DNA of 64,000 nt from Octopus vulgaris. Taxonomy: Eukaryota. The notes below the pieces were generated by a model. It was not told where the DNA came from. It saw nothing but the letters and a program-made list of their open reading frames with translations, and did no database searches. The stretch is from assembly GCA_951406725.2 (NCBI GenBank), contig OX597838.1, positions 44,454,001 through 44,518,000 on the forward strand, read 5' to 3'. Positions 98 through 22,179 of the stretch are shown one piece after another (within the stretch, counting starts at the first letter, position 1; the number at the start of each line of letters is the position of its first letter). The position numbers were made by a program, and so were the translations under genes.

Positions 98-98
98 G
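1..98. repeat. (TATG)n / (TA)n microsatellite
   Basis: Directly visible tandem repeats. Confidence 0.95.
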
Positions 99-217
99 AG
101 GGCATTATTACACATACATGCCACACGCTAAGAGGGACATTAGTCATTTCTACCAAAAAATTTTACTAATCCTACCCAATGCAATTTTTCAAAGCAAGAC
201 ATTTAAAAAATGAATTT

Positions 218-279
218 AGTCTTGTATCACTTGTGATTTCGTACTTACTGCAGTAGCGACCGTACTCATCAGCAAGACT
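218..279 (-). ncRNA. Type I hammerhead ribozyme, canonical core
   Basis: Minus strand reads AGUCUUG-CUGAUGA-GUAC(17 nt)GUAC-GAAA-UCAC-AA-GUGA-UA-CAAGACU. 7-bp helix I, all conserved core bases present, predicted cleavage after AUA (between 225 and 224). Confidence 0.9.
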
Positions 280-388
280 GATTCTGAACATATCATAAAT
301 AAACGACCTCGCACCGTCAAAGCCGAACAGCTATCTGCTCGATTCCAACGAAGCACATGGGGAAGTTTACATATAATACATCCGGTAA

Positions 389-1078
389 ATGGCAGGCTTC
401 TTCGAATTGCATTCGGCTTTCAATTTGGCCGTAAAGACTAATATAGGTAAGGAATTTTTGAGATTAGTCTCTAAGCATTTTAAGCAGGGTCATAAATTCT
501 ACAGAATATTTAATAGAAGAACCCTGAAGGTTAGCTATTCTTGTTGCAGAAATTTCGCCTCTTACATTAGCCAACATAATAAGAAGCTAATTGAGATTAG
601 ACATGGTGCCGAGCCCATTAAGAAATGTAATTTCAAAAACGAAAGCTCCTGTCCGTTAGAAGGGAAATGTCTAGTGAAAGGAGTAGTTTATAGAGCCAAG
701 GTGCAAGTGGAAGGCTCATCGGAATACAAGACATACACAGGGGCTTCAGAAAATTCATTTAAAACAAGATTTTATTCTCATAAAAATTCATTTAAATACC
801 CAGAGAATAGGAAGAAAACCAGCCTAGCAAAATATGTCTGGGAACTAAAAGAAAAGGAAGCCCCACCTTTCAGCGTGACATGGAGCATTCTGGACAGGGC
901 GGCACCATACAGGCATGGAGCTTACAAAAATAATTTCAAGTGCAGGCTTTGTCTATTAGAGAAAATGTACATCTTATTCAAAGACAATAATTCTTTGAAT
1001 CAAAGAAGTGAGTTAATGAACTTATGTAGGCACGCGGCTAAATTTAAAATGTCGAATATAAATATACCATATGGATAG
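389..1078 (+). CDS. C-terminal GIY-YIG endonuclease region of a Penelope-like element (Naiad-like); RT domain missing
   Basis: VKTNIGKEFL..KHF, KIFNR-like, CxFx5Cx5C (degenerate CxCx5Cx5C), VVY..TYTG (GIY-YIG), RFYSHKNSF, CRLCLLEK, NQRSE..CRH. Family homology starts near 415, so the listed Met is probably not a real start. Confidence 0.85.
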   Translation: MAGFFELHSAFNLAVKTNIGKEFLRLVSKHFKQGHKFYRIFNRRTLKVSYSCCRNFASYISQHNKKLIEIRHGAEPIKKCNFKNESSCPLEGKCLVKGVVYRAKVQVEGSSEYKTYTGASENSFKTRFYSHKNSFKYPENRKKTSLAKYVWELKEKEAPPFSVTWSILDRAAPYRHGAYKNNFKCRLCLLEKMYILFKDNNSLNQRSELMNLCRHAAKFKMSNINIPYG

Positions 1079-2207: not shown

Positions 2208-2337
2208 TTGAATTTTCTGCTGCTTAAAATAAAGTATATATATATATATATATATATATACATAAATATATATATATACATGATAGATCGGTAACCACTA
2301 CGCACATTTTTTTCTCTCCTTGTTTTTTTCTCTGTCC

Positions 2338-2373
2338 CTTTCTGTAGAAGAGCGTAGGCTCGAAACGTAAGAG
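2338..2373 (+). ncRNA. Degenerate minimal hammerhead-like motif
   Basis: CUUU-CUGUAGA-A-GAGC-GUAG-GCUC-GAAAC-GUA-AGAG; A6 is replaced by U. Confidence 0.45.
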
Positions 2374-3171
2374 ACCTTTTCAATTCCTGAGCGTTATACT
2401 AATACATCTGTTTGTTTTCTACACCGCCTGTCTTCGTTTTTTGTTCTGTGAGATTACCGTGGTTTTCTCGTCCATAAACCGCTTACTTTTACGGAGTTTC
2501 TTATGACCCTAATGGCCGGTGACCTGTAACCTTCCTTCAAAGTGAAGGAAGAAAAGACCTAGTAGTTAATTGCTAAACACAGGGACATACGAATTTTGCG
2601 TTGGTCAATACTTGTTAAATATACACTGGAAAATACGCTAACATCCATCTTTTACTCAATACTAACGGTAAATGTAGGATATTCAACTTTTAATTAGATG
2701 TAGGATGTCAGTTATCGATTTCTGTTAAATGTAATGTATAAATCTTACACTTACTTTTCCCTAAAATAGAAAGGTACTTGACTCATATTTAGGAACTTGT
2801 ATTTTTTATGACAAATATCGTTATTCAAATCCACACATTAAACGCATTGTCTAAACTTCAACGAAAACCCAACATTTTCTGATTCAGAAAACTTTGACAG
2901 CTTTCTTGAAATAGATGATTATATTTCGGAGTCAAGATTGGTCCCATCTGCTGGAATTATTGACACTTGGGGCGTATACGAATATGATAATATTGGATCT
3001 TTCTATTATACGCACAAAGCCTGCAATTTAGTGGGAGGTTGGTTAGTCGATTATATTCGTCCCTAGTTGTGAACGGGCAATGATTTTGTGGATCCGGAAA
3101 AGATGGAAGGACAATTTGACCATGGTGGGATTTGAAACCTGGAACATAGAACAAAGTTGACAAAAATTTCA

Positions 3172-3665
3172 AAGTAGCTTGCTTACCAACCACATGGTTC
3201 CGGGTTAAGTCCCACTGCGTGTCACCTTCGGCAAGTGTCTTCTACTATAGCCTCGGGTCGACCAAAGCCTTGTGAGTGGATTTGACAGACGGAAACTGAA
3301 AGAAGGTTGTCGTATGTATGTATGTATGTATGTATGTATGTATGTATGTATGTATGTATGTATGTATGTATGTATGTATGTGTGCATGTATGTATGTATG
3401 TGTGTATGTATGTATATATGTATGTGTGTATGTATGTAAGCATGTATTTGGGTATCTGTGTTTGTCCCCCACCATCACTTGCTGTGAACACACCAATCGA
3501 TGTTGGTGTGTTTACATTCCCGTAACTTAGTGGTTCGGTAAAAGAGAACCGATAGAATAAGTAGTAGGCTTACAAAGCATAAGTCCTGGGGTCGATGTGT
3601 TCGACTAAAGGCGGTGCTCCAGTATGGTCACAAATGATTGAATCAAGTATAAGAATACAAGAATG
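3172..3665 (+). mobile_element. tRNA-derived SINE family A with internal microsatellite
   Basis: Head ...CATGGTTCCGGGTTAAGTCCC (B-box-like), (TATG)n centre, tail GGGGTCGA..GACTAAAGGCGGTGCTCCAG; the same sequence recurs at 24915, 32518, 35290 and 62848. Confidence 0.85.
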
Positions 3666-4044: not shown

Positions 4045-5562
4045 CACTGGTTTACCAATTTCTGTTTTACTCTGAAGCAAAGATGTGAATAGGTGTTTTT
4101 TTTTCTAATTTTGATGTGGTGAATTCGATTTTTTAAACAGATTTGCTCTATCACCTATAGTCTTTTTCTTCTTTTCACATATCCCACTTTAATTATATTG
4201 CATATAAATTCAAAACGTGTTTATTTCATCTGTTACAATGGTATATTACAGAAAAAAGAAGCAGCATGGATACAGAACATCGATAGAACTAAATTACCTG
4301 AATAATAACAATACACAAATCATAGTAGAGCAGACAGTTATAAGCGAGTCTTTTTGGACGACCTTGTGTACTTTGCCGCCAGGATGTCACGCAAGAGCAT
4401 CCAGCAAAAGTCCCTCATCATGCTGGGGTTCCACTTGTCTTGGTAGTTACTCCCTATCTTAGTAATATCTTGGCTGAACCTTTCTCCATGCTCATCCCTC
4501 ACTGCTCCGAGCTTCAGAGGGAAGAACTTGAGGTGGAAGTGGAGAAAGTGAATTTTGATTCGGCATCCTATATCCTCATATAACTGTAACAAGGATAATC
4601 TAATACACGTGTGTTATCAAGGAAGCCATGGCAGACTGACTTAAATGCTTCTCATTCTCTCAGTTCCTTTAAGGTATGGAGCTCCTCAAAGTCCTTATCC
4701 TTCAGCACCTCTTGGATTTGAGGTCCGACGAAGCTGCTCTCTTTGAGCTTAGCAGAACTCAGAGCTGGGAACAGAGTGCACAAAGGTTGGAAGGCAGTGC
4801 CATTTTTGTCCATGGCCTTCACGAAATTCTTCATTAAACCAAGTTTGATATGAAGAGAAGGAAGAAGCACCTTGTTCATGCCCAACGGAGAATTTTCTTG
4901 GACACTATGTTCACCAGGGGGGGAAGATCATTATTTGATGGGTGTGTGTAAAGATAGAGACATCATCTGAGTGAAAAACAGGTCTCAAAGCTGAGAAAGG
5001 TTGGGATATTTGATCTTTGTTATAGAATGCATAGAAACCTGTTATATTCGTTAGACAAAAATAACAATCATCTGCATGGTTCCGTGGCTATCTCCAGATT
5101 ATCGAGACAGCAAATTTGAAGCCAAGCTAAAACCATGTTAAAACCTGCAAAGTTAAACCATGCAATTAGTCCATTGTAGCAGGGTTAACAACAAATGTGT
5201 GGGGCCCAACGTTTCTCCTGATCTCCAATTTTACAGCCAAAATTATGAAAGTAAGTAGTTCTCTGGATGGACGTAATTATTCGGCGCGGTGCAACTGTCG
5301 CGAAATCTCCCCCCCCCCCACCACACACAGACGTAGCAGAATGAATTTGCCTCGTTGATGCATCGTCGGTGTTTTGAAGAGCCTGAAGCCATTGTAGAGA
5401 TATGTATCATATGTATCACAATAAATTTGGTAAACAAAATAAAAACTGATCATAAAACTAGAGGCGATGAGTGAAAACTGGTTTTGTATCTGAAATCTGC
5501 ACCCCAAAATTAGGCAAGAACAACTATTTTTCAGTTCGCCTCAATTTGTCTGTAAACCAGTC
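4045..5562 (-). mobile_element. Internally deleted Chapaev3-like (CMC) DNA transposon with transposase pseudogene
   Basis: Termini CACTGGTTTAC / GTAAACCAGTC flanked by TAA on both sides. Minus-strand peptides RRCINEANSFCYVC, LHIKLGLMKNFVKA..FVGPQI and KIHFLH..DEHGERFSQDI..DFCW lie in different frames. The superfamily name is from recognition of these motifs. Confidence 0.8.
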
Positions 5563-12330: not shown

Positions 12331-14220
12331 TATACACATATATACACAGATACATAAGTATATATATGTATACACTTATATCGTCGCAAAATATATTTCA
12401 CGTTAATATAGATAACTGGTCAGAACATTACCATCAGTTTCGCGCTGTGTACTACCAACTGAGAATATTGACATTTCATACGTGCTATCCGTAAGCTTAT
12501 AGTCTCGTCATCACTAAAACTATATCGCCTCAAGTCTGATTCAGGTTTAACGAAAGAGTTGAACAAAATTTTGGTGGCGATGTTGAAGAACGAATGTAAT
12601 GTCAGAAGGAAGAAAGAGAAAAGGTACAGTTAATCCCAATGGATTAGCATTAACTTTAGGTGAAGTTTGAAAGCTGTGTGAGTAACCTTATTAAATTCGA
12701 AAAGCGACATTACCATGACACCAAAACAAATTTACGCTTATGAAAGCATTATGCGAAAGTCTCGCTTTTCGAGTTCAGAAAAGCACCCGGACCTTGTGAA
12801 ATCCTTCCTGCCAAGGAGACTCTATCATTTCCTACTTCCATTAAGATGTCGTCTAACTCTTTCAAGCAATCTCTAATCAATTTTATTTGAGCTTGCCTCC
12901 TCTTCTTATCACTATATATAACTGGTTAGATTTTCAACATAACGTTTTCCCTGAAATTTTAAATAAGATGCGTAATTATTCAACCTGGCCTTCAAGTGGT
13001 CCTCTGTTAATGCGACGCATTTTAATGAAAATGTGTCGTACAGTTGGTATTCGTCGATGCTCCCTCAACTTCGTCGACCATGGCCGTTGTAGTGAACTCT
13101 TTTTCTACATGCCAAAATCATTGCCGATATTTTACGCAATCTCCATTTTGTTCATATTTCAATAACGATGTCCACTGAAGCATAAGCAAGACTGTTGCTT
13201 TCATTTTCCATGTTGACAAAAATCCATTTACCTTTTAAATAAATAAATTAATATGTTTTAGTGAAATTGATTCTTCATTTCACGACCTTAACTCCACTTT
13301 GGTAGTTAGAAAGTCGCTAACGTTTTCTTTCTCTAACTAAATGAAAAATATCAATTAACTGAGAATTTATCGCATTCCGTTAACTACATCTCACTTTATC
13401 AAATATGTATATGTTATAGTAATTTTTACAGTCATGTAAAGCAATATATCACGATAGCAGCTTTTATAGTCACTCAGTATGATATTTAAAATCATGATTT
13501 TAATTAACCCATCAAGTGATATAATTGTTTATAACCTATATTGGCAGAGGATATGGCCAACCAGCTCAACACATTTATGGTATCATAGGAAATTACATAG
13601 TCATATCAGATAATATCCACTAAATCCACTTAATATTGAACATAATTATAAATTACATACAGAGTGGATAACTTTATATAAGTTATCCACTTATATATCT
13701 ACTTAGCATAAGTCAAAACAAATATGTGACGTAGAGGATCTTTTGTGAATTTATCATGGAATTTCTGTTCATACAGCATAGCCAGAAAGCTGTTATAGAA
13801 ACAGACAGCTCGTTGACCCGCAGAGCGATGTACTCCATAGGTTCGGTCAAGGTTTGTAAACTTAGCCGATGCTTTAGAGATATTGAAACAAGACTCTATA
13901 GTAGTCACAATACAATGAAGGCCGCTGGTTTTCAATTAACTCACTACAAATATTCCCCTTGTAGCAAATATTTAATGAAGATTTTTACAATACATTGATA
14001 TAATGATAATTGACTTTCATAAACAAGATATGATTAACAGTTCCTGTTGCGGTTGTTTTAGATATTACTAGTTGTTGATTCTCGATTTAGAAAAAAAGAG
14101 AAAATATTTGCATTTTCGACGGAAAATTTCCTTTGAATGGCTTCGCTAGAAACTTAGGGAAATATGAGATTACAGTGATAGTGATAATGACAATGACGAC
14201 GACGACGATGATGATGATAA

Positions 14221-21031: not shown

Positions 21032-22179
21032 CTAACATTATCATATGATATTAAAAAGGGCGGGTGTAAGCAGACTTGTTAGTAGCAGTAATAATATCAT
21101 AGCGCCAGCTACCGGAGTTCCCCGGTGTATAAGTGACCGAGATCACAATCACGGAAAGTTGCTCATTTACTACTGAGAGGACGGGAGGCATTTGAAGTGA
21201 AGTGATTCGCTCGAACACACAATGCACCACCTGGTCCAAGAAAGTACGACATTACAATCGTCAGTACAAAATTTCCATCACTTGACTATGTGCCTTCCCG
21301 AAAACTTACTGCGTCGCAAAAGCGCTTTGCGATATTTCTCACTAAGGTTCTGAGCTGGGAAAAGGGCTAGCGTACCGGACAAAATGCTAAGTGACATTTC
21401 GTGCGTCTTTACGTACTGAGTTCAGATTCTGCCGAGGTCGAATTTGTCTTTCATCTCTTCAGGGTCGATAAATTAAGTACCAGTTCAGTGGTGGGGGTTG
21501 ACGTAATCGACTTATGTCCTTCCCCAAAATTTTTGGCCTTGTACCAAAAATTTCGGGGAAGGACATTGATATTTCTTCTCACTCTTCTGACGCTTTGTAT
21601 TCTGAGTTCAAATCCCACTGAGCTTAACTTTACTTTTCATCCTCTCGGAGTCGATATCATAAGGCAGCAGTCACGCTGAGGTCGATGACAATCTGTCATT
21701 TGCAGGTCTTTTGTTTTAATCGGAAACGAATACGTAAAACGTGCTTTAATGCTGCTTATTACTGCTGGTATCTACAGTTCAACTTCAGACATTTGTATTT
21801 TCAGGTAAGTTTCGATAGTGGTGAATTCATTTCCGTATTATCGATGAAATCATCTCAATCACTTCTTTCATATTATCCGCAGGTGGGGCGCAAGAAACAG
21901 CTTGCCATACTCCGTTGAGATCATTGCCCTGAAATATCGAACCTTGTCTATTCTGAAGAGTTAGTACAAATGATTGTATTATTACACAGCCTATTACACA
22001 GCAGAAATATTCTACTTTAAGTTATAGAATTATATCAAAGTTATATCACATTACAAGATATTCTTCTCTTTTACTTAGCAAGGCATTCGGTGAAATACAT
22101 AGTAGCATTGCCGCAAGTTAACCAAGGTTTGCAGATTGAATCTGGTATACAAAAGTCTGATATATACATATAAATGAAC

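Follow-up and report, generated by a model that had tools for sequence, protein, structure and literature searches.

Hydra-clade Penelope-like elements, the hammerhead ribozymes that they carry, inverted copies at their 5′ ends and pairs of hammerheads on opposite strands are already known. In the Hydra table of PMC8557442 each family has one hammerhead sequence of its own, and all entries are in sense orientation save the second row of Penelope-13_HM, an identical inverted copy lying antisense at nt 102; the dimer-type design of helix III described in PMC4209133 is also seen in that table. In File S2 of the former paper Penelope-18_HMa is listed, at nt 49, with a hammerhead identical to that of Penelope-1_HM, which may mean that the consensus is a composite of same-strand parts. 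As the case of Penelope-13_HM shows, a truncated ORF preceded by an antisense hammerhead is a known geometry, and the origin of the head-to-head structures formed by Penelope-like elements is called unresolved where PMC3846280 and PMC8557442 deal with it.

The octopus locus described here was found in the window, i.e., the whole stretch of 64,000 nucleotides that was analysed, and is a variant of this known architecture, represented by a single case. With the inverted pLTRs of Penelope-13_HM and Pen2a_Av it shares the head-to-head arrangement, an antisense hammerhead about 100–120 nt inside the left end, the location of both outer ends in the target and a junction at an inverted repeat; unlike in those described cases, which are self-copies forming inverted repeats, the inverted and sense arms do not resemble each other. 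The inverted arm is no reverse-complement copy of the 3′ end of the element that follows it (element A), as an inverted pLTR of the same element would be. The opposite-strand pairs of Schistosoma (PMC4209133) resemble the locus in having two type I motifs, a near-palindromic helix III and an expected low, dimer-dependent activity, but their members lie 100–700 bp apart and are not stated in the sections on these pairs to belong to different families, whereas here the two motifs are 1.9 kb apart and unrelated. The inverted arm (block B) also recalls the animal non-LTR retrozymes, thought to depend on Penelope-like elements and to derive from them according to the relevant parts of PMC7229834 and bioRxiv 10.64898/2026.07.22.740005, since this repeat is non-coding, structured and low in GC (39%), measures about 300 nt and contains a type I hammerhead. 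Retrozymes are, however, defined as tandem monomers of 170–400 nt, each with a hammerhead and expressed as linear and circular RNA, and block B is single here; other copies of it extend 5′ beyond the block, and its 3′ end is defined and lies in (TA)n, as in truncated Penelope-like elements.

An inverted arm originating from a different family was found nowhere in the literature covered, which largely excluded subscription papers and repeat databases. In L1 twin priming, two primings on opposite target strands generate a 5′ inversion joined by microhomology; there one RNA is primed twice and the inverted part is internal, whereas at this locus both arms are 3′ ends and come from different families.

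Anatomy of the locus and identity of element A

The locus very probably reads, from left to right, as (TA)n, the 3′ end of family B on the minus strand, a 5′-truncated Hydra-clade Penelope-like element A on the plus strand, and (TA)n again; in all likelihood the composite consists of two truncated repeats of different families, placed head-to-head in one (TA)n tract and each bearing its own hammerhead on its coding strand. The left target flank (68–97), beside a (TGTA)n array at 1–69, abuts the 3′ end of block B (98–413, minus strand), a 5′-truncated 3′ terminus from a separate repeat family, which runs into (TA)n and is covered by all four runs examined. Within the block are a small terminal hairpin predicted at 98–122, the type I hammerhead of family B at 218–279, whose core starts 175 nt from the (TA)n tract, and, just 5′ of this ribozyme, a predicted rod-like hairpin at 286–383, all on the minus strand. 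The head-to-head junction lies at 413/414 (410–418), where loose ends and piece ends fall at 413, 414 and 416. It is followed on the plus strand by the 5′-truncated, open frame of element A (414–1078), encoding a linker between reverse transcriptase and endonuclease and a GIY-YIG-type endonuclease, by a 3′ UTR (1079–2233) containing a minimal type I hammerhead at 2164–2201 with a predicted cut at 2197/2198, and by the right (TA)n flank (2234–2278), which abuts the 3′ end of the element. (TA)n is present at both outer ends of the composite and absent between its halves, and the antisense placement of ribozyme B relative to the ORF of element A would be incidental. On the plus strand the last nucleotides of block B (389–413) supply an in-frame ATG at 389, giving an open endonuclease-only frame of 229 codons, probably by chance.

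The ORF product of element A is 57% identical to P0001, a protein of 713 aa, from residue 494 of the latter onwards, and other full-length relatives have about 700 aa; P0001 carries RWR and DKT motifs, those of the clade being RWK and DKT, and the reverse transcriptase part of element A is absent from the window. The endonuclease is C-terminal, lacks CCHH and has CxxC and CxH, while at the CxCX5C position of the linker this copy reads C-N-F-x5-C, other copies having a cysteine codon at 632–634 and the relatives C-N-C. A Pfam search returned nothing for the ORF and only sub-threshold matches for three full-length relatives, and relatives of the ORF were not found in viral contigs.

By the definitions given in PMC8557442 element A is, as judged from its sequence, a Hydra-clade Penelope-like element: like the members of this clade it has the CxCX5C position, no CCHH, CxxC and CxH, (TA)n as its target and, close to the 3′ end, a sense hammerhead, whose helix III is identical to that of Penelope-3_HM. 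It departs from the clade in its long 3′ UTR (1,155 nt), and from the Hydra-1_Obim entry of the same source in both linker sequence and hammerhead; neither its ribozyme nor that of family B was found in the accessible supplement of that paper. The label Neptune was considered for element A and rejected, since the CX2-5CxxC linker and the CCHH motif are lacking.

Contigs of the four runs (X1, X3, X4, which may derive from RNA, and X12; 24 listed) were aligned to 98–2233, the lists comprising 32 of 10,426 pieces, 24 of 720 loose ends and 40 of 198 difference rows. The 3′ UTR of element A is covered in all four runs apart from low-complexity bins (1610–1681 in X4 and X12, 1682–1753 in X12), and two X1 contigs run from 2233 into TA-rich sequence, as in the window; in placing TA-rich contig ends, TA runs were read as matches near 2005–2025.

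Forty-three related metagenome loci, several of them near-duplicates and many short, offer a term of comparison. A descriptor search found a hammerhead in 13 of the 43, in sense orientation in 12 and antisense in one (L006), where it lies downstream, in a neighbouring element separated by a (TA)n tract; a complete antisense hammerhead upstream of the ORF occurs in none of the 43. At L006 (742–970) a Hydra-type element and an element with a canonical hammerhead are arranged tail-to-tail across a single (TA)n tract. Self-inversions on the 5′ side are present in L034, L036 and L038, and in the last of these (57–300) an inverted self-copy, with its breakpoint inside the hammerhead, precedes a sense hammerhead and a decayed ORF.

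Block B, very probably a separate family with its own hammerhead

The preliminary description had noticed a block at 99–410; the block exists, its bounds being 98 and 413. It had also held that the minus-strand ribozyme is not a simple inverted copy of the plus-strand one, and this is borne out by the whole block, which is unrelated to the 3′ UTR of element A (local alignment gave a score of 53, and 63 of 200 shuffles scored at least as high). Block B has no BLAST match elsewhere within the 64 kb window and no protein homology was found for it; a coding function of its minus strand was considered and rejected, such homology being lacking.

In the runs the block behaves as an independent repeat. 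Its depth is highest at 98–241 in X1, X3 and X4, as expected of 5′-truncated copies with a 3′ end at 98 on the minus strand, and is flat in X12; one X1 contig runs from TA-rich sequence into 98 and another from about 208 into TA-rich sequence. In X12 block B has a depth of 165–256 and 19 other letters in 275 (about 7% divergence), and most of element A a depth of 9–58 and 20 other letters in 1,381 over six pieces (0–4%), this contrast in depth being supporting evidence only, as contig depth is not copy number; a seventh, diverged piece of element A has 23 other letters in 154. The closeness of element A in X12, a run labelled as another species (0–4%, vs about 7% for block B), may mean recent shared ancestry or transfer. 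Other copies of block B carry the terminal hairpin (98–122) as a tandem pair, to judge from the loose ends before 107 (five contigs of X1, one of X4), and no ORF was seen for family B, of whose 5′ continuation 30 letters are listed. Among the 15 joints listed of 19 none leads from the end of block B back to its start, and the block is single-copy at the locus.

Probably block B is a further Hydra-type Penelope-like element, or else it derives from one and is non-autonomous. The signs of membership are a sense hammerhead with near-palindromic helix III, situated near a 3′ end in (TA)n, in a style that matches the published Hydra table; the distance from core to (TA)n is 175 nt in block B vs 66–146 nt in element A and five related loci.

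On the minus strand, 279–218 contain every part of a type I hammerhead: three helices, of which helix I is open, and an intact catalytic core (CUGANGA, GAAA, UH). Helix I (279–273/224–218) has seven Watson–Crick pairs; the core segments are CUGAUGA (272–266) and GAAA (240–237); helix II (265–262/244–241) has four pairs and is closed by G10.1–C11.1; helix III (237–234/229–226) may gain a fifth pair; and the triplet is AUA, with the cut predicted between 225 and 224. Descriptor and fold thereby confirm what the preliminary description had reported of this ribozyme, namely the intact core, the 7-bp helix I, the G10.1–C11.1 pair, the AUA triplet and the predicted cut site. On both strands of the 64 kb window the descriptor found two motifs, this one and the plus-strand hammerhead of element A (core at 2168), whereas in 300 shuffles it gave 0.08 loose matches per window and none as strong as ribozyme B. 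Rfam listed no hammerhead family among the best 150 of 168 rows for the window, nor in the single row of a second search, and the plus-strand hammerhead is likewise absent from the rows listed; patterns of ribozyme B gave no matches in metagenome and viral contigs.

Copies in other contigs suggest that this structure is maintained. A contig of X12, to which the differences were assigned by their shared depth of 167.4, departs from the window at six listed positions within 218–279, none of them damaging: a two-sided change (278/219) converts G–C to A–U in helix I, the only core change is at the free position N7 (268), two changes fall in loops (253, 231) and the one at 249 adds a pair extending helix II. 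Six random substitutions would leave the ribozyme undamaged with P = 0.019, and undamaged with a two-sided change with P = 0.004, values that refer to one contig with gaps uncounted. At the level of sequence, ribozyme B looks conserved across copies. A loose end in X4 displays a second B variant, in which helix III has a one-base centre; the depth of X4 dips over the ribozyme, a dip that is not interpretable.

At position 249 a letter other than that of the window accounts for 390 of 451 of the depth in X1, 1,778 of 1,778 in X3 and 167 of 167 in X12, and this common letter restores the pair extending helix II, with predicted pair probabilities of 0.33 to 0.97. The loop II palindrome pointed out in the preliminary description, TACTGCAGTA, is indeed present at 255–246 of the window but is no family trait, as it depends on an allele that is in the minority in other copies. 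A functional role of the palindrome as a family feature was consequently rejected, its perfect form needing the minority letter at 249; the palindromic loop II duplex partly survives through wobble pairs (−13.7 vs −12.3 kcal/mol), and X12 disrupts it further at 253.

Folding predictions assign to the active structure only 0.6% of the ribozyme B monomer (0.9% with the common alleles), and to the near-palindromic helix III an intermolecular self-duplex of −9.3 and −11.2 kcal/mol. Since helix III is weak in the monomer yet able to self-pair between molecules, the model suggests dimer-dependent cleavage; ribozyme B would then process the transcript of its own family, with low efficiency as a monomer and more efficiently when dimerised through helix III. 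The hairpin 5′ of the ribozyme is specific for the minus strand in its predicted stability (383–286, z = −3.5, with 0 of 200 shuffles as good, vs z = 0.1 on the plus strand); in a conservation test of 286–383, 4 pairs were broken vs 6.8 expected (P = 0.11).

The junction and its possible origins

Both halves of the composite have other natural continuations across 413/414. Upstream of 414, other copies of element A read codons of the reverse transcriptase linker, W-F-N-P (one contig of X3, two of X4), and record 10 of X12 extends about 1,180 nt beyond 414 in this direction; past 413, other copies of block B continue as TCGG(A/G)AAAG..., a non-coding sequence not contained in the window (two contigs each of X4 and X12). 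Among the 32 pieces listed, four extend as far as the junction, and every one of them stops at 413 or starts at 414–416; a replicated junction, if rare, may still occur among the unlisted pieces. The trinucleotide CGG is common to both natural continuations and one T is missing in the window, which amounts to a microhomology of about 3 nt; an inverted repeat of about 8 bp is present in the X4 consensus, and the break in block B falls at its base. A protein search with the chimeric N-terminus returned 15 matches, all at 51% identity or less, and is silent on whether the junction replicates.

These data uphold the suggestion, made in the preliminary description, of a chimera of two ribozyme-bearing families. 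The template switch proposed there as its mechanism is not the best explanation and is disfavoured, because a jump between two sense RNAs would be expected to yield a same-strand fusion and cannot yield arms on opposite strands. The other suggestion made there, an element that processes both its sense and antisense RNAs, is unsupported, in that block B is not a fixed part of element A and the published Hydra hammerheads are sense save for an inverted self-copy.

The origin that we tentatively favour, at somewhat less than an even chance, is a single insertion: reverse transcription would have started from each of the two nicked target strands, with a different RNA as template for each. A Hydra-clade protein, a dimer as predicted by analogy, would nick both strands of (TA)n; one 3′-OH would be extended along the RNA of element A, starting at the 3′ end of this RNA and reaching 414, the other would be extended along the RNA of family B, again from the 3′ end, as far as 413, where it would stall at a hairpin, and the two cDNA ends would join through the microhomology of about 3 nt. 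This reading is favoured by the lack of any target remnant between the two halves, whereas L006 (the neighbouring hammerhead element) and L017 (a 5′-truncated relative) are each bounded by (TA)n, by a geometry which matches the inverted 5′ copies of the clade (Penelope-13_HM; L034, L036, L038), and by the report, in PMC11167929, that a Poseidon protein, itself a predicted dimer, cleaves and extends both target strands in vitro. Against a single event count the fact that only one locus is concerned, the weakness of a 3-nt microhomology with one missing base, which fits a later deletion equally well, and the common preference of the two families for (TA)n, which, with another repeat starting right after the right tract of element A, makes chance neighbours common. 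It is weakened further by the account of Penelope copies in the pertinent sections of PMC3846280, where microhomology-mediated deletions are frequent, there is reliance on family-specific termini and self-priming is favoured for the inversions. The mechanism odds, here and below, are a matter of judgement and not of computation.

Alternatively, one (TA)n tract may have received two independent insertions in head-to-head arrangement, which a deletion mediated by microhomology then fused, either as the second of them took place or subsequently; this is a substantial possibility, if a lesser one, and nearly as likely as the single event, and ribozyme B would still be that of family B. Copies of either family are numerous and terminate in (TA)n, hammerhead elements are stacked in one tract at L006, the CGG overlap fits, and deletions of this kind in Penelope copies are those described in PMC3846280; yet this sequence of events needs an extra deletion which erased all intervening target and ended inside both elements, and its product would happen to have exactly the usual inverted-5′-arm geometry of the clade. 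It is rather unlikely that block B belongs to the unit of element A, contributing a second hammerhead to it in a leader or an alternative terminal repeat, or that it is the 3′ end of a close subfamily sharing the ORF of element A, which would make the structure an ordinary inverted pLTR. Inverted 5′ copies are routine for Penelope-like elements, ORF copies 13–15% diverged from element A are present in the same runs (X4 records 26 and 28, X12 record 13) and a full-length unit of element A was not seen among the listed contigs; on the other hand, block B has no similarity to 1079–2233, in other copies element A ends at 2233 and block B at 98, each running into TA-rich sequence, the two differ between runs in depth ratio and divergence, and a second hammerhead would be at variance with the single sequence per family of the Hydra table in PMC8557442.

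An antisense hammerhead fixed upstream of the endonuclease region, so that sense and antisense RNAs are both processed, is largely refuted and to be regarded as very improbable. Only the adjacency at this locus and the antisense Penelope templates hypothesised in a passage of PMC3846280 speak for it, and it is contradicted by the coding sequence which is the natural upstream neighbour of 414, by the prevalence of sense orientation in the hammerhead-bearing related loci, with no antisense case upstream of an ORF, and by the orientation of the entries tabulated in PMC8557442. An assembly artefact joining two repeats appears more improbable still: no listed contig bridges 413/414, the join resting on the window's own assembly, but an overlap of about 3 nt is far too short to cause a misjoin, and the best run shares just 63% of sampled words with the window, which indicates that the source individual is probably not among the four runs.

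If the single insertion on two RNAs is the correct reading, the inverted 5′ arm of Penelope-like insertions might more generally be copied from a second RNA, which can belong to another family, a generalisation that we put forward as a conjecture somewhat weaker than the reading of the locus itself. In self-inversions the one-RNA and two-RNA origins look alike, and arms from two families distinguish them; the locus would then be a natural two-family marker of priming at both ends by a dimeric enzyme, and would speak against self-priming with an antisense RNA as template; it would also imply that a single insertion can be put together from two distinct RNAs and that hammerhead-bearing RNAs are used across families. 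Should joins between A and B prove common, counting them genome-wide would put the two-RNA model to the test and reveal mobilisation across families; if instead a deletion joined two neighbours, what is left is a pair of uncatalogued ribozyme-bearing repeats from a clade already known.

Other repeats in the window

Immediately after the right (TA)n tract of element A, a third repeat-like segment (2282–2620, plus strand) contains a degenerate hammerhead-like stem with GAAAC near 2345–2367, and we take it to resemble another Penelope-type terminus. It is followed at 3130–3660 (plus strand) by a presumed SINE-like repeat that a (TGTA)n array interrupts, and at 4344–5400 by open frames which, judged by eye, resemble a decayed DNA-transposon ORF. 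Further along, weak tblastn matches (best E 0.005) to the C-terminus of Hydra-type proteins at 12700–13060 on the minus strand possibly mark a decayed remnant, and at 21510–21608 (plus strand) a U5 snRNA-like match falls just below the Rfam threshold (37.9 of 40 bits, E 0.019).
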